DNA of 64,000 nt from Chitinophagaceae bacterium. Its GTDB lineage: Bacteria; Bacteroidota; Bacteroidia; Chitinophagales; Chitinophagaceae. The notes beneath the pieces were generated by a model. That model searched no databases. It saw nothing but the letters and a program-made list of their open reading frames with translations, and was not told the DNA's origin. This document shows positions 1 through 38,492 of this stretch, piece by piece (position 1 is the first letter of the stretch; every line of letters starts with the position of its first letter). A program made the translations under genes and the position numbers. The stretch covers positions 1-64,000 of the forward strand of contig JANNOM010000083.1 of assembly GCA_031399065.1 (NCBI GenBank), given 5' to 3'.

Positions 1-853
1 CTGATGGCAGTCCTGCCGATAATGTATCGCTAAAAACGAAATCATTGATGCTGCCCTCCCGTTTGACGGAACCGGGCAAGGCTCCCGTTAATATGCTTAA
101 AGCATTTTCCTGAACGGCCATCAACTGTTCTATTTCGGGAATTAGCTGAGAGGCTACCAGGCGCTGCGCTTCCGCCTGCCTCACGGCCAGTGCCGTTACC
201 TGCCCGGCATCGTATTGAAGTTTGATAATGGTGAGCGTACTGTCGTTCAGCAGCAGGTTTTTATTGGCTATCGCCACCTGTTCGCCGAGCATGAGCAAAT
301 TAAAATAACCTTTCGCTATCATGGAAACCAGGTTGGTCTGTACAGCCCTTCTGGCTTCCACTGTTTGGAGGTATTCCGCCAGTGCTTTTGATTTTTGATT
401 TCTAACCTTGCCCCATATATCGGCTTCCCAGCTCAAACGGGTGCTTATGCTGTAATCTTCCACGTACGATTGACCGAGGAACTGGCTTAAACTTAATCCA
501 TTCAGGCTATTGTCCGATGGCCGGTTAATGGCTCCTGTTGCCCGAATAGTTACTTCGGGTAAATAACCCAACCTGCTCTGACGTACGATCAATTCTGCGG
601 ATTCGATATTCTTCATTGCCGTTTGCATATCGTAGTTACGCACGATGGCACTGTCTATCAAATGCTGTAACCCTTCGTTAATAAAAAACTGTTTCCATTG
701 AATGTCCGCGATGCCGGAGGTATCTTTCGTATCTGCGTTCCGGAAGCTTGCGGGTAATGGAGGTTCCGGCGCTACTATATCTTTTGATACTTTACATGCA
801 CTCAAAAACAAGAGCGCCAGTAAAGCCGTATGTACGATGCGTTTCATTTTCAT
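1..853 (-). CDS. RND efflux outer membrane factor lipoprotein (NodT/TolC family), truncated at window edge
   Basis: Hand translation of the minus strand from ATG (rc of 851-853) gives MKMKRIVHTALLALLFLSACKV... (lipobox LSAC). The start overlaps the RND stop by 1 nt (TAATG). It lies downstream of the MFP and RND genes in the same operon. The ORF runs off the window edge. Confidence 0.7.
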   Translation of the reverse strand, partial: MKMKRIVHTALLALLFLSACKVSKDIVAPEPPLPASFRNADTKDTSGIADIQWKQFFINEGLQHLIDSAIVRNYDMQTAMKNIESAELIVRQSRLGYLPEVTIRATGAINRPSDNSLNGLSLSQFLGQSYVEDYSISTRLSWEADIWGKVRNQKSKALAEYLQTVEARRAVQTNLVSMIAKGYFNLLMLGEQVAIANKNLLLNDSTLTIIKLQYDAGQVTALAVRQAEAQRLVASQLIPEIEQLMAVQENALSILTGALPGSVKREGSINDFVFSDTLSAGLPS

Positions 854-3800
854 TATACTTCTTTTAAATGATGAGGGTTGTTAAGAATAACCCGGTTTAC
901 ATGGGGCTCAGTGATTTGTCCTCCTGCTTTATTTCCACTCCATTTTTCCTGCAGGGTTTGGAAAACGACAAATAGTACGGGTATGATAAAAATTCCCAAA
1001 AGTACGCCCGTTAACATGCCCCCTACGGCACCGGTACCTATAGAGCGGTTACCCATTGCCGATGCTCCAGTGGCCGTAAGCAATGGTATCAGTCCTGCTA
1101 TGAAGGCGAAAGACGTCATGAGAATAGGACGAAGTCTTAACCGGGCAGCTTCTATAGCGGCGTTGCGAATGGAAAGCCCGGCTTTTCTTCTTTGCACGGC
1201 ATATTCCACGATCAGGATGGCATTTTTCGCCAGCAGGCCAATCAGCATGATGAGGCCCACCTGAACGTAAATATTGTTTTCTATACCCGCAATATTTATG
1301 AATATGAAGACGCCTAACAAGCCCGTGGGCACTGAAAGTATTACGGCCAGGGGAAGAATATAACTTTCATACTGAGCGGCCAGTAAGAGGTATATGAACA
1401 CCAGCGACATTATAAATATCAGGGTGGTTTGTGTGCCGGCGCTTTGCTCTTCCCTGGTAAGTCCGCCCCATTCAAACGCATATCCCCTGGGTAAAGAGGC
1501 GGCAGCTACTTCCTGCACCGCCTTCAATGCCTGGCCGGAACTGTACCCCGGTTTAGGTATCCCGTTTATCACAACCGCATTGAACAGGTTGTTTCTTGTT
1601 ACCGTTTCGGGACCATATACTTTTTCCAGGGTAATCAGCGATTTTATGGGCACCATCCTTCCCAGGTCATTTTTTACCTGCACATCGTTAAGTGTGGACG
1701 GGTCGATGCGGTAAGCGATATCCGATTGCAATATTACCTTGAACTGCTTGCCGAAGCGATTAAAGTCACTTGCCTGGTAACTGCCATAATACACCTGCAG
1801 GGTTTGCAGTAATTCACTGATGGAAACACCCAACTGTTTGGCCCTTGATTCATCTATATTCAATTTATATTGCGGGTTACCTGTATTAAAAGTGGTAAAT
1901 GCATAAACGATTTCCGGGCGTTTCATCAGCTCGCCTATAAAATCGTTGGTAGCGGTACTCAGGTCTTCCAGTTTTCCGTTGCCCCTGTCCTGTAATATCA
2001 GTTCAAAGCCGCTGGTATTACCGAATCCCTGAACGGTGGGCAAGGTAAAGGTGAACATATCCGCCGACGAAACAGCCGTGAGCCGCTGGTTCACCTCCGC
2101 GAGTATCGTATTGATATCTTCCGTGTGGCCCCTGGTGCCAGGCTTTTTAAGCTTTACGAAAGCGAGTGCGCTGATGGGACTGGTAGCATTGGTAATGATA
2201 TTCATCCCTGCAACGCTATACGATTTTTCCACCGCTTCAACGGTTGAAATGATACTGTCGACCCTTTCCACCACTTTGCGTGTACGCTCCAGCGATGAGC
2301 CTGCGGGCATGTTAAGTGAATACAAAAAGATGCTCTGATCTTCTGTCGGAATAAATCCGGTAGGCGTTTGCCTTACTATCAGTACGGTGCCGATGGTTAT
2401 GATTACGAGCGAGCCTAGAGCCACCCATTTCGTTTTGATCAGGAACTGCAGGCTTTTACCGTAACGGTTAGTAAGATTATTAAAACCGGCATTAAAGCCA
2501 TTGAAGAACCTTGCTTTAAATCCTTTGGGTTTGTCTGATTCTTTGTGATGATTGTTCCTTAAGAATAACGCGGACAATGCAGGACTTAGTGTAAGCGCGT
2601 TAACCGCTGAAATAAGTATGGCGATGGCCAGCGTAAAGGCAAACTGTTTATAGAAAATACCAGCCGGTCCCTGCATGAAGCCGACGGGAACGAATACCGC
2701 CGCCATTACCAGTGTGATGGAAATGATGGCACCGGATATTTCATTCATGCTTTTGACCGTGGCTTCCCTCGCCGGCATATTCTCGTTGGCCATTTTGGTA
2801 TGCACGGCTTCCACTACTACGATGGCATCATCCACCACGATACCGATGGCCAGTATCAATGCGAACAGAGTAAGCAGGTTGATAGTGAAGCCAAATAACT
2901 GCATGAAAAAGAATGTTCCGAGGATAGCTACGGGAACCGCTATAGCGGGTATGAGCGTGGAGCGGAAGTCCTGCAAAAACAGGAACACCACCAGGAATAC
3001 CAGGATGAACGCTTCCAGCAGGGTATGTTTAACCTTGTCGATGGAGGCATCTAAAAATTCTTTCGCGGAATAGGGGACAAATACTTTTATGCCTTTGGGC
3101 AGATCTTTTTGTACCCTTTCCATGATGCCGTTAACTTCTGTAAGAATATCGTTGGCGTTGGAACCTGCCGATTGATAGATGAGAATTCCGGTGGCAGGAC
3201 CTTTATCTACTTTTGCATCGGCGGTATAGTTGAACGAACCCAGGTCGACCCTTGCCACATCTTTCAGCCTGATGGCGGAGCCATCGGGGGTGCTTTTCAG
3301 GATGATGTTTTCGTATTCATCATTGCTGATAAGTTTGCCTTTATATTTAATTACATATTCGAACGACTCCTTGCTGCCTTCCCCGAATTTACCCGGAGCC
3401 GCTTCCAGGTTTTGTTCCCTTATGGATTCCAATACGTTTTGTACGGAGAGGTTGTAAGCGGCCAGTCGGTCGGGTTTAAGCCAAACCCGCATGGCGTAAT
3501 CTTTTGAACCAAAGATCTCGGCCTGTCCTACTCCGTGTACGCGCTTTATTTCCGGTACAATGTTTATTTCGGCATAATTCTGTAAAAACGTTTCATCATA
3601 GATACTGTCGTTGGTATACAGGGCTATGGCCATGATGATACTGTTTTGCTGCTTTTGCGTAGTAATACCTACCTGTAATACTTCCTGCGGAACGAGGCTG
3701 CTAGCCTTTGCCACGCGGTTCTGCACGTTTACGGACGCAATATCCGGATCGGTGCCTGCTTTAAAGAAAACGCTCAGCGTCATGGTGCCGTCGTTATTTG

Positions 3801-4044
3801 AATTGGAGGTCATGTAAGTCATGTTCTCCACCCCGTTGATGGCTTCCTCCAGTGGTGTGGCGACGGAACGCGCCACCACTTCTGCGCTGGCACCGGGATA
3901 GGCCGTTGTTACCAGTACCGCCGGGGGTGCAATGTCCGGAAACTGTGTAATGGGTAAGGATGTGAGCGAGACGATACCCACCAGCACCAATAGTATGGAG
4001 ATTACGGTAGATAATACCGGGCGTTCTATAAATTTCTTAAACAT
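853..4044 (-). CDS. RND multidrug efflux permease (AcrB/HAE1 family)
   Basis: 1063 aa with 12-TM architecture and two large periplasmic loops. Typical AcrB motifs are present (e.g. GLLAKNAILIVEYA). Confidence 0.9.
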   Translation of the reverse strand: MFKKFIERPVLSTVISILLVLVGIVSLTSLPITQFPDIAPPAVLVTTAYPGASAEVVARSVATPLEEAINGVENMTYMTSNSNNDGTMTLSVFFKAGTDPDIASVNVQNRVAKASSLVPQEVLQVGITTQKQQNSIIMAIALYTNDSIYDETFLQNYAEINIVPEIKRVHGVGQAEIFGSKDYAMRVWLKPDRLAAYNLSVQNVLESIREQNLEAAPGKFGEGSKESFEYVIKYKGKLISNDEYENIILKSTPDGSAIRLKDVARVDLGSFNYTADAKVDKGPATGILIYQSAGSNANDILTEVNGIMERVQKDLPKGIKVFVPYSAKEFLDASIDKVKHTLLEAFILVFLVVFLFLQDFRSTLIPAIAVPVAILGTFFFMQLFGFTINLLTLFALILAIGIVVDDAIVVVEAVHTKMANENMPAREATVKSMNEISGAIISITLVMAAVFVPVGFMQGPAGIFYKQFAFTLAIAILISAVNALTLSPALSALFLRNNHHKESDKPKGFKARFFNGFNAGFNNLTNRYGKSLQFLIKTKWVALGSLVIITIGTVLIVRQTPTGFIPTEDQSIFLYSLNMPAGSSLERTRKVVERVDSIISTVEAVEKSYSVAGMNIITNATSPISALAFVKLKKPGTRGHTEDINTILAEVNQRLTAVSSADMFTFTLPTVQGFGNTSGFELILQDRGNGKLEDLSTATNDFIGELMKRPEIVYAFTTFNTGNPQYKLNIDESRAKQLGVSISELLQTLQVYYGSYQASDFNRFGKQFKVILQSDIAYRIDPSTLNDVQVKNDLGRMVPIKSLITLEKVYGPETVTRNNLFNAVVINGIPKPGYSSGQALKAVQEVAAASLPRGYAFEWGGLTREEQSAGTQTTLIFIMSLVFIYLLLAAQYESYILPLAVILSVPTGLLGVFIFINIAGIENNIYVQVGLIMLIGLLAKNAILIVEYAVQRRKAGLSIRNAAIEAARLRLRPILMTSFAFIAGLIPLLTATGASAMGNRSIGTGAVGGMLTGVLLGIFIIPVLFVVFQTLQEKWSGNKAGGQITEPHVNRVILNNPHHLKEV

Positions 4045-7362: not shown

Positions 7363-8460
7363 TTACTTAGGCACAAATATGTCCTTCAACTGTTCTATCA
7401 GTTTACCATTGCCACTTACACTGATATTGCTGATCTTATCGGCAATCTTTTCCACATATTCCATTTCTTTAAGTTTCCATAACATCGCATTTTCTTCCAT
7501 CAATTTGGCAGTGTTCAGCAAGCTACGGGTGCTGGCCGTTTCTTCCCGGCGCATAATGGTATTAACCTGAGCTTTTTTCTCGGCAACCAGAACCTGGTTC
7601 ATAATTTCTTTTACGTCGCCGGGCAAGATGATATCCCGGATGCCAAAACCCTGTACCTGCACACCCAATGCTTCCGCATATTGCTTTACATACTCCAGAA
7701 TATAAGATGCTATGGTTTCTTTTTTGTCCAGCAATTCATCAAAACCAAAACCGGCAACATATTCCCGCAGTGCTAACTGGAAACTAATATACAACTGGCG
7801 TTCATACTCCTTGTTTTGCAACAAAGCTTTTTCAATATCCGTCACTTTGTATTGTGCCCAGGCATTGATACGCAATGCCGCTTTATCCCTTGTTAATATT
7901 TCCTGGCCGTTTATTTCCAGTTGTTGCTGACGCATATCTGCTTTACCTACATGGATGGCTATATTGTTCTTCCACCAGAAATATACGCCACTCTCCAATG
8001 ACTGGACGTATTTTCCATCCATGAACAATACTGCCTGCTCGTAATTTTCAACGCTTACGCTCCTAACGTAGGGTGCTATCAGCTTATTGGCCAGTGTAGC
8101 CCGGTCGATAGGTTCGGTAATAGCAGCTTTACCGATATCGGCCTTTACAAAATCGTAACGCACAGGCCCCTTCCAGTAAGCATACCTTCCCGCGGTTAAT
8201 ACTTCTGCCAGTATGCCGTTTTTGTATTGAAGCACAATTTCATTGTCTTTTACTTCCACTACTTCCAGCACTGATGCCAGTAAGGGGTCCTGCAGCAGGA
8301 TGTTTAGTTCTATAGGGGTATTAAACGCTCTGGTGATTTCATAAACCATTACGTCTTCGCTGAGCCAGAACCAATAATTCCCTTCAGGTATCATCCTTTT
8401 AAACGATCCGTTTTTAAACACCAGACCTACCTGGTAGGCGTTTACTTTTACATGTTTCAT
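7363..8460 (-). CDS. SPFH/band-7 domain protein (no predicted TM segment)
   Basis: The C-terminal half matches the stomatin/prohibitin SPFH core (GFGIRDIILPGDVKEIMNQV...). There is an N-terminal extension of about 110 aa with no hydrophobic anchor. Confidence 0.75.
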   Translation of the reverse strand: MKHVKVNAYQVGLVFKNGSFKRMIPEGNYWFWLSEDVMVYEITRAFNTPIELNILLQDPLLASVLEVVEVKDNEIVLQYKNGILAEVLTAGRYAYWKGPVRYDFVKADIGKAAITEPIDRATLANKLIAPYVRSVSVENYEQAVLFMDGKYVQSLESGVYFWWKNNIAIHVGKADMRQQQLEINGQEILTRDKAALRINAWAQYKVTDIEKALLQNKEYERQLYISFQLALREYVAGFGFDELLDKKETIASYILEYVKQYAEALGVQVQGFGIRDIILPGDVKEIMNQVLVAEKKAQVNTIMRREETASTRSLLNTAKLMEENAMLWKLKEMEYVEKIADKISNISVSGNGKLIEQLKDIFVPK

Positions 8461-8734
8461 TATTGTTTGTTTTTAAGTCATTAATAAAAAGCCGGCTTGT
8501 TTACTATCGGATCAATATGGAATCGATCTTCCCGTTACATTTATCCATACCAGTTTCTTTCCCTGGATTATTAATTATTCTATAATAATCGCCAGGATCA
8601 AAAGTGGCCCGGCGAACGCACTGGTACGGTCAATTGCTGACATTTACCCGATTGCAGTATACCCGATGTCACCCAGAAATACTACCAGCAAACATTCCGG
8701 CTTTGTTGCATGTCATCATTTTTTGAGAAGCGAT

Positions 8735-8990
8735 GGACTTCTTTGTTTTCAACATCCCGAGTGTTGTGTTCTACCACTGAACCATCACGCATGAAGCGCG
8801 AGCAGGATTCGAACCTGCGTTACAAGAGCCGTTGCTCTAACCTGACTAAGCTACCTGCTATTAACAGGGGAGGATTCGAACCTCCGACACACAGCGTATT
8901 GGCAGGCAGCGCCCTAATAAAACAATAGCATACAGATAGTTACTACGTCTGCACTGCGGGGCCTGTAAAAGCCCTCACCTGGTTTGTTTA
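8735..8990 (-). pseudogene. Cluster of tRNA-derived fragments (possible att/tRNA remnants)
   Basis: The minus strand has a 5' half of a Pro-like tRNA (GCGTGAT-GGTTCAGTGGTAGAAC-CAACA-CTCGGGA-TGTTG) with no T-arm. It also has two T-arm plus acceptor 3'-ends (GCAGGTTCGAATCCTGC-TCGCGCT; GTGTGTC-GGAGGTTCGAATCCTCC-CCTGTTA) with no matching 5' acceptor strands. The second fragment carries a Phe-like GTGTC variable loop. Confidence 0.4.
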
Positions 8991-9066: not shown

Positions 9067-9549
9067 TCATTGTACTATTTTATTAGCACAGTTGCTGCTG
9101 GCAAAAGCGTGCGGCTTGGCACGGAAAGCGAATCCCATACCCATGATATAACCCATAGCTTCTTTGAGGGCATCATTGCTTTTAAAGTTCGGGTTAGTAT
9201 TAATATCCGCATGTACCTCCATATCAATGTCGTACAGGGTAAATATCCCACAAAGGTTGTAAGCGGTATCTATACTTTTTGCCACTTCCAGTAACATCCT
9301 TTGCTTGATGCTCATTTTCTGGCGGCTGACTTCTGAGTGGACATACATAAAACCTCCTTTTCCTTTACGGATAAAAACAATCACCGTAGCAAACTCCGTT
9401 GTCTTTCCTTTTACCTGGCTATCTGTTCCTATGCATACTTTTAATGCGTGTCCGTCTGCCTTTTCACGCACGATCACTTTCCTGATCTCGTCGGCTATTG
9501 GTTGCCCGATCTCTTGTCCATTTAGTTTTTTCCATTTCTGTTCCATCAT
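9067..9549 (-). CDS. DUF458/YkuK family protein (RNase H-like fold)
   Basis: 160 aa with a conserved IGTDSQ...FATVIVF core. The gene is embedded between the tRNA array and the tRNA fragments. Confidence 0.55.
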   Translation of the reverse strand: MMEQKWKKLNGQEIGQPIADEIRKVIVREKADGHALKVCIGTDSQVKGKTTEFATVIVFIRKGKGGFMYVHSEVSRQKMSIKQRMLLEVAKSIDTAYNLCGIFTLYDIDMEVHADINTNPNFKSNDALKEAMGYIMGMGFAFRAKPHAFASSNCANKIVQ

Positions 9550-9565
9550 ATTTTATTTATCAAAG

Positions 9566-9637
9566 CACAGGATGAAGGATTCGAACCTTCATGCACGGGG
9601 TTGGAATCCGTGTTGTTGCCAGTTACAGCAATCCTGT
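9566..9637 (-). tRNA. tRNA-Trp (anticodon CCA)
   Basis: Hand-folded as ACAGGAT-TG-CTGT-AACTGGCA-ACAA-C-ACGGA-TTCCAAC-CCCGT-GCAT-GAAGG-TTCGAAT-CCTTC-ATCCTGT-G. A1-U72 and G73 fit bacterial Trp identity. There is one mismatch each in the D-stem and anticodon stem. Confidence 0.55.
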
Positions 9638-9642
9638 CAATG

Positions 9643-9714
9643 CGGGCGAAGCAGGACTCGAACCTGCAACCACGGTGTTTCAAACCGCTGCTCTGCCATT
9701 GGAGCTATTCGTCC
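9643..9714 (-). tRNA. tRNA-Phe (anticodon GAA), second non-identical copy
   Basis: GGACGAA-TA-GCTC-CAATGGCA-GAGC-A-GCGGT-TTGAAAC-ACCGT-GGTT-GCAGG-TTCGAGT-CCTGC-TTCGCCC-G. The acceptor stem has an A3-C70 mismatch. Confidence 0.6.
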
Positions 9715-9773
9715 GGAAGGAGAGCACAGTACACAGGCCTGCAGCTCTCCGGGATACCTCCTCCCTGTTATTG

Positions 9774-9846
9774 CGGATGAAGAAAGAATCGAACTTTCAA
9801 CCTTCGGCCTAACAAACCGCCGCTCTGCCTATTGAGCTATTCATCC
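9774..9846 (-). tRNA. tRNA-Asn (anticodon GTT)
   Basis: GGATGAA-TA-GCTC-AATAGGCA-GAGC-G-GCGGT-TTGTTAG-GCCGA-AGGTT-GAAAG-TTCGATT-CTTTC-TTCATCC-G. There is a 27-43 mismatch. Confidence 0.55.
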
Positions 9847-9850
9847 ATCG

Positions 9851-9924
9851 TTGGCCCGGAGCGACTCGAACGCCCAATACACGGCTTAAAAGACCGTTAC
9901 TCTATCCATTTGAGTTACGAGCCA
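9851..9924 (-). tRNA. tRNA-Lys (anticodon TTT)
   Basis: TGGCTCG-TA-ACTC-AAATGGATA-GAGT-A-ACGGT-CTTTTAA-GCCGT-GTATT-GGGCG-TTCGAGT-CGCTC-CGGGCCA-A. It has an unusual U1-A72 pair. Confidence 0.55.
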
Positions 9925-9927
9925 ATC

Positions 9928-10003
9928 TGGTGATGATAGAAAGAATCGAACTTTCAACCGCTATCGTATAAGGATAGTGCTCTGCCAATTGAGCTATATC
10001 ATC
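9928..10003 (-). tRNA. tRNA-Ile (anticodon TAT = UAU, AUA-decoding), CCA encoded
   Basis: GATGATA-TA-GCTC-AATTGGCA-GAGC-A-CTATC-CTTATAC-GATAG-CGGTT-GAAAG-TTCGATT-CTTTC-TATCATC-A-CCA. The 5-bp anticodon stem is perfect and the 7-nt loop is C-T-TAT-A-C. The D- and T-arms are near-identical to the adjacent tRNA-Asn. Confidence 0.6.
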
Positions 10004-10115
10004 ATTTCATCGCGGCTGCGGCATTAAGACCCGCATCTCCTGCTTATTAGACTATAGTGTCACCATTACATCAAACAGTGAGGTACTTTGCCAGTTAAGC
10101 TAAAAGTGACATAGG

Positions 10116-10187
10116 TTGTTGAGGCTGGATTCGAACCAACATCATCAGTGCCAAAAACTGATATGCTAACCATTACACTACTCAACA
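10116..10187 (-). tRNA. tRNA-Gln (anticodon TTG)
   Basis: TGTTGAG-TA-GTGT-AATGGTTA-GCAT-A-TCAGT-TTTTGGC-ACTGA-TGAT-GTTGG-TTCGAAT-CCAGC-CTCAACA-A. U1-A72 is typical of bacterial Gln. Confidence 0.6.
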
Positions 10188-10193
10188 TCATTG

Positions 10194-10265
10194 CGGTTTG
10201 TACGGGAATCGAACCCATGGCAACAGATAGACAATCTGCTATGTTAGCCATTACACCAACAAACC
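10194..10265 (-). tRNA. tRNA-Asp (anticodon GTC)
   Basis: GGTTTGT-TG-GTGT-AATGGCTA-ACAT-A-GCAGA-TTGTCTA-TCTGT-TGCC-ATGGG-TTCGATT-CCCGT-ACAAACC-G. Position 37 is a pyrimidine, which is unusual. Confidence 0.55.
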
Positions 10266-10269
10266 GTAA

Positions 10270-10341
10270 TAACCCGTATGGCAATCGAACCCATATCATC
10301 ACATGGAAAATGTGAGATCCTAGCCTTTAGAAGAACGGGCT
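10270..10341 (-). tRNA. tRNA-Glu-like (anticodon TTC), degenerate, possible pseudogene
   Basis: AGCCCGT-TC-TTCT-AAAGGCTA-GGAT-C-TCACA-TTTTCCA-TGTGA-TGAT-ATGGG-TTCGATT-GCCAT-ACGGGTT-A. The D-loop pattern resembles bacterial Glu. It has a G53-G61 mismatch, a 10-25 mismatch and C37. Confidence 0.35.
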
Positions 10342-10361
10342 TTCTGAATGATATCCGGAAA

Positions 10362-10399
10362 TAAAAAAAGCCCGGTCGCTGTTAACGACCGGGCTTTTT
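10362..10399. terminator. Bidirectional rho-independent terminator
   Basis: aaaaaaaGCCCGGTCGctgttaaCGACCGGGCttttt is a 9-bp GC-rich stem flanked by A- and T-tracts. Confidence 0.7.
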
Positions 10400-10414
10400 C
10401 AAATTGCGTGAATA

Positions 10415-10582
10415 ATTAAATACTCATGCGATGATACTCCGGTCGTGGAATAAGAATGTTCTGCTCATTACCTATACAATCGCTATTGATAAATGTATTT
10501 ACATACCAATAGCCACCTTGCAATGAAGGAACGTTATTATGTATAGTAAATCGTTTAAGTCGTAACTGTAGTAGCAATTCCA
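10415..10582 (-). CDS. Hypothetical 55-aa peptide (MELLLQLRLKRFTIHNNVPSLQGGYWYVNTFINSDCIGNEQNILIPRPEYHRMSI)
   Basis: The ORF lies exactly between the two terminators and was translated by hand from the minus strand. There is no recognisable homology and it is too short for the ORF track. Confidence 0.25.
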
Positions 10583-10606
10583 TTTTTTTAATATAATAAT
10601 GATTAA

Positions 10607-10636
10607 AAATAAAAAACCCCGCTTTGTGGGCGGGGC
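10607..10636 (-). terminator. Rho-independent terminator (minus-strand orientation)
   Basis: Minus strand reads GCCCCGCccacaaaGCGGGGttttttatttttaat, a hairpin followed by a strong T-tract downstream of the AraC remnant. Confidence 0.6.
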
Positions 10637-10880
10637 TTGTATTTCAGCGATTTCGTTTATTCAACTTATTGCAGCACTACATGCCCCGGAACTGGATCGC
10701 AGCCTTTTGAGCTAAACCAATTCACTGTGATAATATGTTGTTCTATTCGTTGCATGTATATTATTTGTTTGCGATGCAAAGATGACAATCTTTTTTTGAT
10801 ATTACCAAATAATCAATGAATATTTTTAAATAAATTAAATAGACTAGGTGCTGATATTTATGTGCGTTTTCGATATCAAG

Positions 10881-11146
10881 CCTAAATGATTACTTCTTTA
10901 TTGTATTTGTTTCGGTATTCCAACGGCGACATCCCTGTAATTTTTCTGAAGACCTCACGAAATGCCTTTACATCCGAAATATCCTACTTCATAACGAACT
11001 TCGTTTACCGTTTTATGACTGCTTTCAAACGCCTTTTTTGCCGCCTTAATTTTTACTCTTTGTAAATATTCGACAGGCGTATTGCCGGTTGCTTTAATAA
11101 ATCTTCTGTCAAAACTTCTTCTGCCAACAGAAAATTTAGATGACAA
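10881..11146 (-). pseudogene. AraC/XylS-family regulator remnant (C-terminal HTH domain only, frameshifted)
   Basis: Frame A reads ...FDRRFIKATGNTPVEYLQRVKIKAAKKAFESSHKTVNEVRYEVGYF. The domain continues in another frame as DVKAFREVFRKITGMSPLEYRNKYNKEVII*. There is no N-terminal sensing domain, because the upstream space is occupied by the RhuM gene. Confidence 0.65.
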
Positions 11147-11205: not shown

Positions 11206-11922
11206 CTACGTCAGTTGCTGGCCACCGAAGGTCTGGTAAATGGCGGCGAGCGATCCCTGAAATGATTCGTCTTTTTCGTTTCCGAACAGGCTGCTCCCCC
11301 CGAACTTTTCCCGAAGGCCCTGAATCGCATTCATCGCTTCCTCGTAGTTGATCTGGAATAATTCCCGGGAAGTGGTAGCCCCGATTTCCAGCGCCTGGTG
11401 ATCATACTTATCCAATACATCCAACGCATAGGTATAATCCGTGATTACTTTCAGCAGGCCGGTCGCCTCGTTGTAACTCAGCGGCTGCTTCTTCACTACA
11501 TTCGCGAGCAGCTTCACCGTCTGTTTCAGCTGGACAAATTGCTCATTTTGTTCCTGAATCCGCTTTTCATTGATAGAAAATCCCTTCACCAAATAATCTT
11601 TTAGCACTTTATTCGCCCAGATACGGAATTGAGTACCACAAGTTGATTTTACCCGGTATCCAACTGAAATAATAACATCCAGGCTATAAGCCACGACCGG
11701 CCTGTCGGAATTAGCAATTTGCAAAAAATGCAAATTGCTTTTTTCGTCGAGTTCACCTTCTTCAAAAATATTTTTTATATGCCTGGAAATTACTGACACG
11801 CTTCTTCCAAATAACTGAACCATTTGAGCCTGGCTTAACCAAACGGTATCATTTTCCAGCTTAACGTCGATGATTGTTCCCCCATCCTGGGCCTGATATA
11901 TGATAATTTCTCCTGTTTGCAT
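11206..11922 (-). CDS. RhuM-family (virulence-associated) protein
   Basis: It has a conserved core (TVWLSQAQMVQLFGRSVSVISRHIKNIFEEGEL ... LDVIISVGYRVKSTCGTQFRIWANKVLKDYLVKGF). Confidence 0.8.
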   Translation of the reverse strand: MQTGEIIIYQAQDGGTIIDVKLENDTVWLSQAQMVQLFGRSVSVISRHIKNIFEEGELDEKSNLHFLQIANSDRPVVAYSLDVIISVGYRVKSTCGTQFRIWANKVLKDYLVKGFSINEKRIQEQNEQFVQLKQTVKLLANVVKKQPLSYNEATGLLKVITDYTYALDVLDKYDHQALEIGATTSRELFQINYEEAMNAIQGLREKFGGSSLFGNEKDESFQGSLAAIYQTFGGQQLT

Positions 11923-11974
11923 AAAGAAAGAAAGACCTGAATTCAGCTATTTGTACTGATTTCAGATCTTCTTG

Positions 11975-12047
11975 TGGTGTGGGCCGGGGTTGAACCGGCG
12001 ACACATGGATTTTCAGTCCATTGCTCTACCAACTGAGCTACCGCACC
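11975..12047 (-). tRNA. tRNA-Phe (anticodon GAA), canonical copy
   Basis: GGTGCGG-TA-GCTC-AGTTGGTA-GAGC-A-ATGGA-CTGAAAA-TCCAT-GTGTC-GCCGG-TTCAACC-CCGGC-CCACACC-A. There is one acceptor mismatch (C5-A68) by my reading. Confidence 0.8.
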
Positions 12048-32181: not shown

Positions 32182-35013
32182 TCAATGTGCTTCCAGCCAG
32201 TTGATGCCTACGCCTACTTCTGCATTAGCAGGAACATTGTTGGGAAGCAGCAGCGCATTTTGCATACATTCTACCACCAGTGTTTTCAGCAGGTCAACTT
32301 CTTCTTTATGTGCGTCAAATACCAGTTCATCATGTACCTGTAACAACATCTTCGACTTCAGTTTTCTTTTGCTGAATTCGTCGTGTATGCTGATCATGGC
32401 CAGCTTTATCATATCTGCAGCGGTGCCTTGTATGGGCGAGTTAATGGCGTTTCTTTCTGCAAATCCCCTCACGGTAAAGTTTGCCGAATTAATATCTTTC
32501 AGCCATCTTTTTCTTCCCATGAGCGTTTTAACATACCCGTTCTCCCGTGCAAAATTAATAGTATCGTCCATATACCGCTGGATATTGGGAAACTGCTTTT
32601 TATAGTTATCTATAATTTCCCTGGCTTCACCCCTGGATACACCGAGGTTCTCCGCAAGCCCGAAAGCCCCCTGTCCGTATATGATGCCGAAGTTTACGCT
32701 TTTGGCTTTATAGCGCATTTCTTTCGTTACGGCTGTTTCCTCCACTCCGAATACTTTGGCGGCAGTGGCAGTATGTATATCGCTGCCGCTTGTAAAGGCA
32801 GCGCACATATTAGGGTCTCCGCTGATGGCGGCAACGATGCGCAGTTCTATCTGCGAATAGTCTGCGCTTAAAAGCAGGTGATCTGCATCTCGCGGTACAA
32901 AAGCCTTACGTATCTCGCGGCCTTTGGCCGTACGTATCGGTATGTTTTGCAGGTTGGGATTGGTGCTGCTTAGTCTACCCGTTACCGCAACCGCCTGGGC
33001 ATAGGAAGTATGTACGCGTCCTGTTTTGGGGTTTATAAGAATGGGAAGGGCGTCTATATAAGTGGATTTAAGTTTGGTGAGTTCGCGGAACCCCAGTATA
33101 TCGTCTACTATCTGGTTCTGATGGGCCAGTTTTGCCAGTACTTCTTCGCCGGTAGCATACTGGCCGGTCTTGGTTTTTTTGGCCTTAGGGTCCAGTTTCA
33201 GTTTCTCGAAAAGAATTTCTCCCAGTTGCTTAGGTGATGAAACATTAAAACGCATGCCTGCCTGTTCATATATGTTTTCTTCGTAACGTTTTACTTCCAG
33301 CTCGAGTTGCTGTGAATAATCTTTAAGAAAAGCGGTGTCTACTTTTATGCCTTCGAACTCGATCGCTGCCAGTATTTTCACCAGGGGTGTTTCCACTTCT
33401 TCGAATACGCGCTCCACTTCACGTTTTGTAATCAGCGGAACAAAAGCATGATGAAGCTGTAAGGTAATATCGGCATCTTCTGCAGCGTATTCTTTGATCT
33501 TTTCCAGTTCCACGTCACGCATATTTCCCTGGTTCTTTCCTTTTTTACCGATCATTTCCTCTATGTGTACGGGCTCATACCCCAGGAACTGGGCACTTAA
33601 CAAATCCATGCCCCTTCTGCCTTCCGGTTCTATTACATAATGGGCTACCATCGTGTCGAATATCTTTCCTTTTATTTCAATGCCATACCACTTTAACACC
33701 AGCAGATCGTATTTGGCGTTCTGTCCTACCCATAAAATGGATGTATTTTCATATAGGGGTTTAAATAAGGCTAACAGGTTCAGTGTCTGCTCCCGGTCTG
33801 CCGGGCAGGGTATATAAAACCCTGTACCTGGCAAAAACGAAAAGCTAAGTCCTACCAGTTCAGCGTTATTGGCATCGATACCGGTTGTTTCGGTATCGAA
33901 TGAAATGGTGGATTGCTGCGATAAGGTTTCTATCAATTGCCTAATGGCTGCTTCGTCCTGTACCAGCATATAACTATGCGGGGTGTTATGAATATTCTTT
34001 TCGGCCACCAGTCCGCCTGCTGGTTCTTCTTCCGCTATCTCTGGCTCTGCGGACTTAACAGGCTTTTGTTTATTTTCAACTGCGTTGCCGAACAGATCGG
34101 TCTGTGTACTTTGAGGAGCAACATTAAAGACACTGTAATTTTCTCCCAGTATTCTTCTTCCAAGCGATTTAAATTCAAGCTCTGTAAATATCTCGGTCAG
34201 TTCGGCACTGTTATGTTCCTTTAACCGGTAGTCTTCCGGGTGAAATGCTACTGGTACGCTGGTAATAATGGTAGCCAGTTTTTTGCTCATGATAGCCTGC
34301 TCTCTTCCGTTACGGATTTTTTCTCCTACCGATCCTTTAATATTTTCTGCATTTGCCAGCACATTCTCCAGCGTTCCATATTCTTTCAACAGTTTGCAGG
34401 CTGTTTTTTCACCGATGCCCGCAATACCGGGTATATTATCCACCGCATCGCCCATCATGCCCAGCATGTCCACTACCTGCGTTACATTTTCGATGCACCA
34501 TTTATCCGTTATCTTTTTTGCGTCCAGTATTTCGGAGGGGTTGCCCTGGTATCCGGGTTTGTAAATATATACATGGTCGTGTGTAAGCAACTGGCCATAA
34601 TCTTTGTCCGGTGTAACCATATATACCTCGTATCCATCATCGGCGGCTTGCCATGCGAGGGTGCCTATTACATCGTCCGCCTCGAAGCCGTCCAGCTCCA
34701 CCACGGGAATATTAAAGCCTTTTATGATTTTCTTGATATCGTCTATCGAGTTCAGCAAATCCTCCGGGGCTTCCTGCCTGTTGGCTTTGTACGCGGAAAA
34801 ATCGATATGCCTTTCCGTTGGGGCATGCGTATCGAAGCATACCGCAATATGAGTAGGTTTTTCTTTATTGATCAGGTCGAACAAGGTATTGGTAAACCCG
34901 AATTGGGCATTGGTGTTTTTCCCCTTGGAAGAAATGATCGGGCTCCGGATCAGCGCATAGTAGGCTCTATAGATAAGGGCCATAGCATCCAGGAGATAGA
35001 GTTTTTTGTTCAT
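32182..35013 (-). CDS. polA: DNA polymerase I
   Basis: 943 aa with 5'-3' exonuclease, 3'-5' exonuclease and polymerase domains (motif A DYSQIELR, motif C HDEL). Confidence 0.95.
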   Translation of the reverse strand: MNKKLYLLDAMALIYRAYYALIRSPIISSKGKNTNAQFGFTNTLFDLINKEKPTHIAVCFDTHAPTERHIDFSAYKANRQEAPEDLLNSIDDIKKIIKGFNIPVVELDGFEADDVIGTLAWQAADDGYEVYMVTPDKDYGQLLTHDHVYIYKPGYQGNPSEILDAKKITDKWCIENVTQVVDMLGMMGDAVDNIPGIAGIGEKTACKLLKEYGTLENVLANAENIKGSVGEKIRNGREQAIMSKKLATIITSVPVAFHPEDYRLKEHNSAELTEIFTELEFKSLGRRILGENYSVFNVAPQSTQTDLFGNAVENKQKPVKSAEPEIAEEEPAGGLVAEKNIHNTPHSYMLVQDEAAIRQLIETLSQQSTISFDTETTGIDANNAELVGLSFSFLPGTGFYIPCPADREQTLNLLALFKPLYENTSILWVGQNAKYDLLVLKWYGIEIKGKIFDTMVAHYVIEPEGRRGMDLLSAQFLGYEPVHIEEMIGKKGKNQGNMRDVELEKIKEYAAEDADITLQLHHAFVPLITKREVERVFEEVETPLVKILAAIEFEGIKVDTAFLKDYSQQLELEVKRYEENIYEQAGMRFNVSSPKQLGEILFEKLKLDPKAKKTKTGQYATGEEVLAKLAHQNQIVDDILGFRELTKLKSTYIDALPILINPKTGRVHTSYAQAVAVTGRLSSTNPNLQNIPIRTAKGREIRKAFVPRDADHLLLSADYSQIELRIVAAISGDPNMCAAFTSGSDIHTATAAKVFGVEETAVTKEMRYKAKSVNFGIIYGQGAFGLAENLGVSRGEAREIIDNYKKQFPNIQRYMDDTINFARENGYVKTLMGRKRWLKDINSANFTVRGFAERNAINSPIQGTAADMIKLAMISIHDEFSKRKLKSKMLLQVHDELVFDAHKEEVDLLKTLVVECMQNALLLPNNVPANAEVGVGINWLEAH

Positions 35014-37490: not shown

Positions 37491-38492
37491 TTAAGAAGCT
37501 GCTGCTTCTGTTATTTTAACCCTGATCTTTGTTTCCAGTTCGTTAGCAAGTTCGGGGTTATCGAGCAGCAGTTGCTTTACCGCTTCCCTTCCCTGACCGA
37601 GCTTATTGGTATCATAGCTGAACCAGCTTCCGCTTTTGGTGATCACTCCCAGTTCCACTCCCATATCGATAATTTCCCCGACTTTACTGATTCCCTCACC
37701 GAAAACGATGTCGAATTCTGCTTGGCGGAAGGGGGGCGCGACTTTATTCTTGACTACTTTCACTTTTACCCTGTTACCGACTGCCTCGTCCCCGTCTTTT
37801 ATCTGTGCCATGCGGCGGATGTCCAAACGTACGGACGCGTAAAATTTAAGTGCATTACCGCCGGTGGTGGTTTCCGGGTTTCCGAACATCACCCCTATTT
37901 TTTCCCGTAGCTGGTTGATAAATATGCAGATCGTATTGGTTTTGCTGATAGTGGCTGTAAGTTTCCTCAGGGCCTGGCTCATCAGCCTGGCGTGAAGCCC
38001 CATTTTACTGTCACCCATTTCACCTTCCAGCTCACTTTTAGGCACCAGGGCCGCTACGGAGTCGATTACCAGCACATCTATTGCTCCAGACAATATCAAC
38101 CTATCTGCTATTTCAAGCCCCTGTTCGCCGTAATCCGGCTGAGAAATCAGCAGGTTGTCCACATCCACCCCTAGCTTTTTAGCATATGCACTGTCGAATG
38201 CATGTTCTGCATCTACAATGGCACACATGCCTCCTTTTTTCGGAGCTTCGGCTATTACGTGTATGGCTATGGTGGTTTTACCAGATGACTCCGGTCCGTA
38301 TATTTCCACGATCCGGCCTTTGGGAAGGCCCCCGATGCCCAACGCTACGTCCAGGCCGATAGACCCCGTAGAAATAACTTCCTGAGGCTCCTGGGAGCGT
38401 TCATTCATCATCATAACACTTCCCTTCCCGTAATCCTTATCTATCTTGTCGATGGTTAATTTAAGTGCTTTGAGTTTTTCTACGTTTGACAT
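37491..38492 (-). CDS. recA: Recombinase RecA
   Basis: 333 aa with Walker A (GPESSGKTT) and L1/L2 loops. Confidence 0.97.

Follow-up and report, generated by a model that had tools for sequence, protein, structure and literature searches.

A tRNA-Ile(UAU) gene of probable tRNA-Ile(GAU) descent in a leader-preceded tRNA array of Chitinophagaceae

In bacteria, AUA codons are normally read by a CAU-anticodon tRNA that requires modification by TilS, and the housekeeping tRNA-Ile(GAU) is normally present in multiple copies in the rRNA operons. Here we describe a tRNA-Ile gene with a UAU anticodon, located at positions 9928 to 10003 (minus strand) in an array of extra tRNA genes within a 64,000-nt stretch of DNA from a Chitinophagaceae bacterium (the window, in what follows). 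To our knowledge, a laboratory suppressor is the sole case in which a bacterial tRNA-Ile(GAU) gene has been shown directly to turn into an AUA decoder. In Bacillus subtilis, the replacement of G34 by U in tRNA-Ile1 rescues the loss of tilS (Fabret 2011, as cited in PMC3919564 and PMC3575796), and this tRNA, whose U34 is unmodified, shows strong binding to AUA and weak binding to AUG on the ribosomes of this species (PMC3919564). The event predicted for the window is the same, namely, a change from Ile(GAU) to UAU by G34 to T that would yield a lysidine-independent AUA decoder. However, the B. subtilis suppressor was selected in the laboratory after tilS inactivation and affects a housekeeping copy, whereas the gene of the window is natural, belongs to a supernumerary array, and goes with the deletion of a paralogous UAU gene rather than with any known tilS loss. 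A second known case is tRNA-Ile2(UAU) of Mycoplasma mobile (Taniguchi et al. 2013, PMC3575796), in which UAU serves AUA, as predicted here; both cases raise the questions of how IleRS accepts U34 and how AUA is discriminated from AUG. In M. mobile, which has no tilS, the UAU tRNA is the sole AUA decoder and works with an adapted IleRS (R865) and ribosome, whereas the gene of the window is an accessory array copy in a phylum that normally possesses TilS. Some bacteria possess both tilS and a TAT gene (PMC3575796).

The array itself resembles the L-arrays (Santamaria-Gomez et al. 2021, PMC8421152), which are packed, same-strand groups of divergent extra tRNAs, pseudogenes included, and are linked to rtcB and RNA-processing genes, as are the relatives of the window's array. 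L-arrays also occur in Bacteroidetes and are silent unless translation is impaired; in particular, antibiotics that target the ribosome induce the trn operon of Anabaena PCC 7120, which is regulated together with rtcB and has 26 tRNAs, 23 of them aminoacylated in vivo (PMC8421152). We recognized the anatomy of an L-array in the window, with eight same-strand tRNAs (up to 18 in relatives) that diverge from the housekeeping set. However, L-arrays are sporadic, are horizontally transferred, and rarely add new anticodons (PMC8421152), whereas the array described here supplies UAU and belongs to a stable, family-wide locus: in our collection of 80 species-level loci, all from Chitinophagaceae or Chitinophagales, plus other contigs (83 non-redundant loci), a same-strand tRNA array of 1 to 18 genes lies upstream of a YkuK gene in 77 of 83. 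Furthermore, the Anabaena operon has direct repeats in its promoter and an HNH homing endonuclease at its flank, while the array of the window is preceded by units made of a leader open reading frame (ORF) and a terminator and is followed by YkuK; no HNH gene was seen beside it.

Among the nine tRNAs of the window, ARAGORN calls tRNA-Ile(tat) at 9928 to 10003, and Rfam RF00005 matches the gene over the full model (1 to 71) with 70.3 bits (E value, 2.5e-13; gathering score, 29), which is the highest tRNA score in the window, the housekeeping tRNA-Phe reaching 69.4 bits. The cloverleaf is the minimum-energy fold, all 21 pairs are intact, and a perfect anticodon stem, CUAUC/GAUAG, closes the loop C-U-UAU-A-C. 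The original prediction, made from the letters alone, of a tRNA-Ile with a UAU anticodon, a clean cloverleaf, and a CTATC/GATAG stem inside an accessory array is thus borne out, and neither program proposes an alternative anticodon frame. Since the gene encodes T34, it is distinct from the canonical AUA decoder tRNA-Ile2, whose C34 is converted to lysidine by TilS.

The alignment of array tRNAs with NAU anticodons allowed us to distinguish three families. Lineage A, found in 21 species, has the acceptor stem UGRCCYG/CRGGYCA and the anticodon loop CUUAUAC; lineage B, found in 29 species, has the acceptor stem GAUGACU/AGUCAUC and the anticodon loop CUGAUAC; the third is a separate family with a CAU anticodon, present in 23 loci. 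The gene of the window has the body of lineage B and occupies the lineage-B slot, directly 5' of tRNA-Lys, yet it carries U34: of the 29 lineage-B genes aligned, 28 have a G at position 34, the window providing the sole T. Its best matches are Ile(GAU) genes of other species (79 to 83% identity), while each of the other seven array tRNAs finds its best match in the orthologue with the same anticodon in other arrays (82 to 92% identity). Orthology to the Ile(GAU) family, the shared slot, and A73 place the gene within tRNA-Ile by descent. Lineage B is itself under evident constraint, with A73 and the loop CU-NAU-AC conserved, 99.2% of the cells of the cloverleaf paired, and compensatory changes in 11 of 21 pairs, a result equalled by none of 500 shuffles. 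Specific to the window, and not disruptive, are a compensated replacement at 7:66 (A-U for G-C), two differences in variable positions of the loops, and the change at position 34. Ile(tat) is called in 22 of the 83 loci, the window counted, usually in the run Ile(UAU)-Met(CAU)-Ile(GAU); a UAU anticodon, which had been presented as a rarity, is therefore no one-off in this setting, where a dedicated UAU lineage occurs in 21 species. As a separate observation, the converse of the window's case is seen in one relative (L047, 4219-4291), where GAU is the anticodon of a gene with a lineage-A body.

The comparison with the nearest relatives revealed a deletion beside the switched gene. In the relative L087, whose YkuK is 84% identical, the array reads Glu, Asp pseudogene, Gln, His, an Arg-like tRNA, Ile-UAU of lineage A, Met-CAU, Ile-GAU of lineage B, Lys, Asn, Phe, and Trp. 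In a pairwise alignment, L087 and the window are collinear with 80% column identity, apart from a gap of about 205 nt in the window, in which the 3' half of His, the Arg-like tRNA, Ile(UAU) of lineage A, and the 5' end of Met(CAU) are missing. The corresponding scar was delimited by blastn, local alignments, and the alignment to L087 at 10004 to 10113 (minus strand), where the 5' half of a tRNA-His (about 10111-10075), 87 to 90% identical to array His genes, is joined to a tRNA-Met(CAU) pseudogene (about 10076-10017). The Met remnant aligns to array Met with a score of 59 (shuffles, 23 +/- 3.6); AAT has replaced CAT as its anticodon, and the T-arm is no longer intact. For the orthologous Ile gene, the sequence is ...CUAUCCUGAUACGAUAG... 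in L087, compared to ...CUAUCCUUAUACGAUAG... in the window. An independent contig from a soil metagenome (L089), the sole match of a metagenome scan with this anticodon arm and position 34 left free, also keeps Ile-UAU of lineage A beside Ile-GAU of lineage B. Its lineage-B gene is about 94% identical to that of the window, from which it differs only at 7:66 (G-C instead of A-U), by one extra D-loop base, and at positions 34 and 59. Since both Ile genes are present in L087 and in L089, the lineage of the window can be traced to an ancestor with two genes, and parsimony would place the deletion and the change of G34 to U in the window's own lineage. We consider it highly probable that Ile(UAU) originated from the GAU lineage through G34U, in association with the deletion.

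As the original prediction stated, A73 and a CCA are encoded at the 3' end of the gene (ACCAGAT). The presence of CCA is thus confirmed, but not its conservation, because the Ile(GAU) orthologues lack it (L087 reads ACTCAAC and L089 reads ACAAAAA), only 2 of the 29 aligned GAU-lineage genes encode it, and none of the other seven array tRNAs does. Since it is neither conserved in orthologues nor shared with other array members, the CCA is probably chance spacer sequence.

The codon usage of the window bears on the demand for such a tRNA. In 20 window genes (10,814 codons), which include the ORFs at 853-4044, 32182-35013, and 37491-38492, isoleucine is encoded by ATA 276 times, ATC 257 times, and ATT 218 times, so that ATA makes up 36.8% of the Ile codons (25.5 per thousand codons); in recA, it accounts for 12 of 30. 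In bacteria, it is unusual for AUA to be the top Ile codon, which implies that much AUA decoding is needed. The 64-kb window contains no tilS, IleRS, or tRNA-Ile2(CAU) gene, and the array's own CAU gene persists in it solely as the pseudogene fragment described above. Taken together, the locus is probably best explained by an anticodon-switched, conditionally made backup AUA tRNA. Judging from its sequence, Ile(UAU) is most likely an extra tRNA with an intact structure that is charged with isoleucine and decodes AUA, and we lean slightly towards a functional role as an AUA decoder.

The following route can be proposed. In Chitinophagaceae, a chromosomal tRNA operon of variable content, with an ancestral order of approximately Glu Asp Gln His Arg Ile-UAU Met-CAU Ile-GAU Lys Asn .. 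Phe Trp, lies between a conserved leader region and the YkuK gene. In the lineage of the window, a deletion of about 205 nt took the dedicated Ile(UAU), half of His, the Arg-like tRNA, and the start of Met, and the adjacent Ile(GAU) gene gained the change of G34 to U, recreating a UAU anticodon in the array. The GAU copy is redundant with the housekeeping copies and AUA normally depends on TilS, so that a GAU copy would be the most dispensable member of the array and a UAU copy the least. The switch may have been kept because it restored TilS-independent AUA decoding, considering that decoders of AUY are redundant, AUA is the top Ile codon, and AUA is normally TilS dependent.

The conditional production proposed for the array tRNA comes from two tandem units upstream of the array, each composed of a leader ORF, with a putative and conserved anti-terminator segment in it, and a terminator, at 10610-10810 and 10350-10585 (both minus strand). 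The first starts with a promoter-like element of the Bacteroidota type (10777 to 10809, minus strand), consisting of TTTG at 10809-10806, a spacer of 21 nt, and CATCTTTG at 10784-10777. This element is part of the unit-1 profile, is conserved nearly base for base in 20 aligned loci, and fits the Bacteroidota consensus, -33 TTTG / -7 TAnnTTTG, a promoter type that our sigma-70 promoter scan does not cover. Leader ORF 1 (10666 to 10755, minus strand) has 29 codons, MQRIEQHIITVNWFSSKGCDPVPGHVVLQ followed by a stop, with 18 different amino acids and ATA as codon 4; ATA is found at this position in 14 of the 20 leaders tabulated by codon. Of 75 profile matches, 73 yielded a homologue of about 30 codons, whose consensus, MLRIQLHIETANWFSPKGDYTVCGACYAAE, holds all 20 amino acids. 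The 73 leaders contain on average 18.4 distinct amino acids (range, 16 to 20, in about 30 codons), compared to 14.1 +/- 1.5 in 30-residue windows of host proteins. Mere inheritance from one ancestor was rejected as the source of this diversity, since the observed mean (18.39) lies above all 2,000 simulations of neutral divergence from the consensus (17.06 +/- 0.16), in which a star phylogeny and generic amino acid frequencies were assumed.

The 3' end of leader ORF 1 contains a putative anti-terminator segment, CCGGGGCAUGU (10679 to 10689, minus strand), complementary to ACAAGCCCCG at 10640-10631. In particular, an 11-nt segment, GCGGGGCAUGU, repeats the 3' arm of terminator 1 and can pair with its 5' arm plus flank, ACAGGCCCCGC; it is kept as nucleotides even where indels shift the leader frame. 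The anti-terminator pairing occupies 79.5% of cells, compared to at most 53% for slid controls, and corresponds both to the RNAalifold consensus and to the minimum-energy fold of the window RNA without the terminator's 3' arm. Intrinsic terminator 1, recovered by the terminator scan at 10611 to 10638 (minus strand), consists of GCCCCGC, a 7-nt loop, GCGGGG, and a U run, with 85.6% of cells paired, 10 cells changed on both sides, and no shuffle out of 500 as high.

The second unit has the same organization. Leader ORF 2 (10416 to 10583, minus strand) has 55 codons and 19 different amino acids, and a homologue was present in 19 of 20 loci examined; the family spans 40 to 65 codons with the pattern ML..LQHKRF..GCYWY..SIEPIGN..kRP... 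Within it, the 3' arm of terminator 2 recurs as CGACCGG at 10445-10439, and CGACCG, which provides the near-invariant "RP" codons, is exact in 15 of 19 loci and has one mismatch in the other 4. Intrinsic terminator 2 (10363 to 10394, minus strand), apparent on direct reading and made of GCCCGGUCG, UUAACAG, CGACCGGGC, and U7, ends 21 nt before tRNA-Glu, has a fold z-score of -6.8, and finds a counterpart in 19 of the 20 loci examined. As a side observation, a third conserved ORF of about 45 codons with a hydrophobic N terminus, MKFLLIVLAIHF..E.I.NK......HPAEFeLR and a stop, lies between terminator 2 and the array in L011, L027, L045, L051, L055, L057, L065, L071, L074, and L078; it is absent from the window.

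The unit-1 profile matches 75 of 86 loci, each with an E value of 5e-22 or lower and always upstream of the array on the array strand; 10 of the 11 loci without a match are contigs that end just upstream, L068 being the sole miss with upstream sequence. Moreover, the leader is found directly upstream of YkuK also in loci without detectable tRNAs, and therefore the constant parts of the locus are the leader and YkuK, between which an array of variable content is inserted; L056 and L081 have no array, and their leader directly adjoins YkuK. Rfam holds no known family over the leaders or the array spacers, the best match being Trp_leader with 25.4 bits against a gathering score of 41, and in the literature searched we found neither a leader or attenuator on tRNA arrays nor a link between YkuK and such arrays.

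The described systems closest to these units are the trp, his, thr, and leu leaders, which, like unit 1, combine a short ORF with an intrinsic terminator and with an anti-terminator that competes with the latter and overlaps the ORF, the anti-terminator being a prediction for unit 1. However, those leaders contain runs of one codon and precede biosynthesis genes, whereas leader 1 shows no run of the codons of one regulatory amino acid, nearly all 20 amino acids are represented, and two units precede an operon of tRNA and RNA-repair-type genes. The architecture of a short ORF followed by an intrinsic terminator is nonetheless there, with an ORF of predicted translation in 73 of 75 matches and a terminator that covaries. 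Two other readings of leader ORF 1 were rejected. A list of the array's own tRNAs would not conserve Thr, Ala, and Val, for which array tRNAs are missing or rare; a precursor of a ribosomally synthesized and posttranslationally modified peptide fits poorly with a radical-SAM gene in only 22 of 83 loci, a 3' part conserved as nucleotides, and a unit that ends in a terminator. The simplest reading, and control by attenuation appears rather probable to us, is that the leaders act as a ribosome-dependent attenuator that would report general elongation capacity. The array tRNA would then be made conditionally, with ribosomes that slow or stall on the leaders allowing read-through into the array and YkuK and, in relatives, also into AAA, Band-7, and RtcB genes. 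It is this leader and terminator architecture that suggests stress induction of the window's array, a behavior that would match that of the Anabaena L-array through a different mechanism.

Across the family, YkuK is 74 to 87% identical on very many Bacteroidota contigs, and the array has a conserved order: (Pro Gly) Glu Asp (Leu) Gln His Arg Ile-UAU Met-CAU Ile-GAU (Val) Lys Asn (Tyr) Ser (Cys) Phe Trp. In the 83 loci, tblastn found an AAA ATPase (57 loci), Band-7 (53), and RtcB (51) downstream and a radical-SAM protein (22) and a 2H phosphoesterase (14 to 16) upstream; all of these counts are lower bounds, since the contigs of many relatives end early. In approximately one-quarter of the loci (L010, L013, L014, L020, L031, L032, L034, and about 15 others), the AAA ATPase gene is found not after YkuK but about 1.05 kb upstream of it, between YkuK and the array, which indicates that the gene order in the operon is flexible. 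We could also notice unusual array members in relatives, with ARAGORN calls that include "anticodons" of 2 or 4 nt, insertions of about 20 nt, Phe(AAA), Gly(ACC), Ser(ACU), and SeC(UCA); examples are L078 5280-5361, L010 4573-4645, L011 5589-5679, L029 4894-4986, and L035 4512-4605. These members may be either degenerate or non-canonical.

In the window, the eight tRNAs occupy 777 nt and follow each other, from 10341 down to 9565, in the order Glu, Asp, Gln, a 110-nt gap, Ile, Lys, Asn, a 58-nt gap, Phe, and Trp, the spacers called by ARAGORN being 3 to 5 nt except for the two longer gaps. All lie on the minus strand, as do the further features of the locus given here. The first member is tRNA-Glu(UUC) (10270 to 10341; ARAGORN), followed by tRNA-Asp(GUC) (10193 to 10265), up to 92% identical to the array Asp of other species, and tRNA-Gln(UUG) (10114 to 10187), up to 91% identical to its orthologues. 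Downstream of Ile(UAU) are tRNA-Lys(UUU) (9850 to 9924), the most widespread array member (60 of 83 loci), and tRNA-Asn(GUU) (9773 to 9846; ARAGORN). The 58-nt spacer that follows (9715 to 9772) contains a 7-bp hairpin, GGAGAGC...GCUCUCC, and about 48 nt of it is missing in L087; nothing similar is present in the spacers of other arrays, in which a tRNA-Ser(GCU) is often located. The array tRNA-Phe(GAA) (9642 to 9714) is 59 to 64% identical to the housekeeping tRNA-Phe, and the last member, tRNA-Trp(CCA) (9565 to 9637; 41.4 bits), ends 16 nt before the start codon of YkuK. The latter (9067 to 9549) is a YkuK/DUF458 RNase H-like protein of 160 amino acids (Pfam PF04308; E value, 2.6e-36), for which we found no sequence relative in the PDB and no PADLOC match.

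Further downstream, sub-threshold Rfam matches mark tRNA-like or Y-RNA-like elements (8724 to 8916, minus strand) ahead of the gene for an SPFH/Band-7 protein (7363 to 8460, minus strand; Pfam). They comprise a YrlA match over the full model with 40.4 bits (E value, 1.2e-6), below the gathering score of 69, and two partial tRNA matches with clean T-arms, GGAGGTTCGAATCCTCC and GCAGGTTCGAATCCTGC; a similar match lies upstream of Band-7 in L004 (11793-11858). These elements probably correspond to the predicted tRNA associated with Band-7 (b7a-tRNA), a concept of Burroughs and Aravind (2016) as cited in 10.1101/312249. The neighborhoods of Band-7, b7a-tRNA, and RtcB described there are alike in that Band-7 follows a tRNA-like RNA also in the window, where the tRNA-like matches are sub-threshold only, and RtcB follows in 51 of 83 relatives; in the text consulted, we found no multi-tRNA array, YkuK, or leader units mentioned in this context.

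The array sits in core chromosome, the window also carrying AcrB/HlyD/TetR efflux genes, RecQ, PolA, UvrB, RecA, UvrD, and RpoN. Upstream of it, beside recQ, is the housekeeping tRNA-Phe(GAA) (11974-12047, minus strand), with a G+C content of 0.58 compared to 0.38 to 0.40 for the array tRNAs, and with a non-standard C5.A68 pair in the Rfam alignment. Between this tRNA and the array promoter are a truncated RhuM-family gene (11206-11922, minus strand), which matches the PADLOC candidate defense families PDC-S23 and PDC-S05 (E value, 7e-91) over positions 1 to 241 of a 327-position profile, and, after it, the C-terminal fragment of an AraC-family gene (10955-11146, minus strand). Both look like rearrangement debris at this site.

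A backup AUA decoder made by an anticodon switch has to be weighed against several observations that speak for less. The lineage-B acceptor stem lacks the C4:G69 pair that E. coli IleRS uses. Bacterial IleRS with a Trp at the position of E. coli W905 charges UAU poorly, while an Arg permits it (PMC3575796). The G34U switch is known from one event only, in 1 of 29 lineage-B genes and a single source, and the locus L001 may come from the same reads as the window. Considering the divergence of about 6 to 12% from the relatives, the change at position 34 may have arisen by chance. Arrays that lost one Ile lineage kept the original anticodon of the other (e.g., L007, L020, L025, L028, and L063), and therefore the loss does not force a switch. 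The locus is eroded, with no His, Arg, lineage-A Ile, or Met gene left. The first array member, tRNA-Glu(UUC), has a G53.G61 mismatch in the T-stem where its L087 orthologue has the usual G53-C61, scores 36.4 bits, and may be impaired. Finally, the arms of the proposed anti-terminator are nearly invariant and do not covary, so that the argument for this helix is one of conservation.

The alternative that draws most from these points is neutral decay, in which the array is degenerating, G34 changed to T at random in a gene no longer needed, and UAU has no decoding role. The scar with its two pseudogene fragments, the broken pair of tRNA-Glu, the single occurrence of the switch, and the absence from the window of any homologue of RtcB, AAA, radical-SAM, or 2H-phosphoesterase genes are all consistent with it. 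However, the Ile gene is the best-scoring tRNA of the window with every pair intact, and the one difference between its stems and those of L087 and L089 is a compensated pair, an unlikely outcome without constraint; moreover, YkuK, the promoter, and the two leaders with their terminators are intact. We regard neutral decay as unlikely, although it deserves to be kept in mind.

A non-translational role, in which the array tRNAs would not decode but would draw off anticodon nucleases (decoys or sponges) or serve the neighboring RNA-repair proteins of the Band-7/RtcB type as substrates or cofactors, appears less probable still. The tRNAs found most often in the arrays (Lys UUU, Asn, His, Gln, Arg, Asp, and Glu) are classic anticodon-nuclease targets, and in relatives, the array sits among YkuK, AAA, tRNA-like RNA, Band-7, and RtcB. 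A sponge function has been proposed for the tRNAs of the Anabaena L-array (PMC8421152), but the same study found most of these tRNAs aminoacylated in vivo. Furthermore, the conservation of cloverleaf, anticodon loop, and acceptor, with strong covariation, resembles that of ordinary decoding tRNAs, and a decoy role gives no reason for a regenerated UAU anticodon. The two roles are not mutually exclusive.

Recent acquisition of the array as phage or plasmid cargo, integrated beside the housekeeping tRNA-Phe, is very improbable. The low G+C content of the array tRNAs, the second tRNA-Phe, the RhuM and AraC remnants upstream, and the horizontal spread typical of L-arrays (PMC8421152) would be in keeping with it, and phage tRNA clusters are likewise AT rich and tightly spaced and often favor codons ending in A or U. 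However, the array differs from such clusters in its context: core chromosomal genes flank it, no phage genes do, and the PHROG matches in the window are weak or of unknown function. Phage and plasmid collections searched by blastn and viral contigs searched by two pattern scans gave single-tRNA matches only, while synteny with YkuK extends across 83 Chitinophagaceae species, in which orthologous members are 80 to 92% identical.

Finally, the original prediction had proposed that the array diversified by duplication and anticodon change, from the near-identical D- and T-arms of Ile(UAU) and the neighboring tRNA-Asn; the resemblance is real (identical 17-nt T-arm, D-arm with one different loop base, 75% overall identity) and so is the anticodon change, but tRNA-Asn as the recent donor has to be dismissed, with hardly any probability left to it, given the lineage-B acceptor and anticodon stems, the close match to the Ile(GAU) gene of L089, the slot 5' of Lys, and the separate conservation of Asn and lineage-B Ile across Chitinophagaceae. 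The consensus sequences of lineage-B Ile and Asn are 73% identical (all family pairs, 58.2 +/- 5.2%), and no more than 2 of 25 loci have the same T-arm in both; the resemblance is old and predates the radiation of Chitinophagaceae, and a deep duplication before the family arose may link the two.

Returning to the switched Ile(UAU) as a conditional backup, a broader hypothesis can be advanced, only tentatively and with more doubt than confidence, in which the locus would be a circuit, undescribed as far as we could find, that senses translation capacity: two attenuating leaders would induce backup tRNAs, YkuK, and mostly AAA, Band-7, and RtcB, and the loss of the AUA decoder would have been compensated by the anticodon switch. 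Such a circuit would be triggered by shortage of or damage to any tRNA or by a general slowing of ribosomes.

Since sister genomes preserve the states that preceded the switch, the evolutionary route to lysidine-independent AUA decoding becomes directly comparable. The dedicated Ile(UAU) lineage persists where TilS is expected, in an AUA-heavy family with culturable genera (Niastella, Lacibacter, Terrimonas, and Flavisolibacter), which makes the acceptance of U34 by IleRS and the avoidance of AUG misreading approachable by experiment. Moreover, the association of the array with leader and terminator units and with RNA-repair-type genes suggests a concrete route by which it may be switched on and links tRNA supply to repair in this family.

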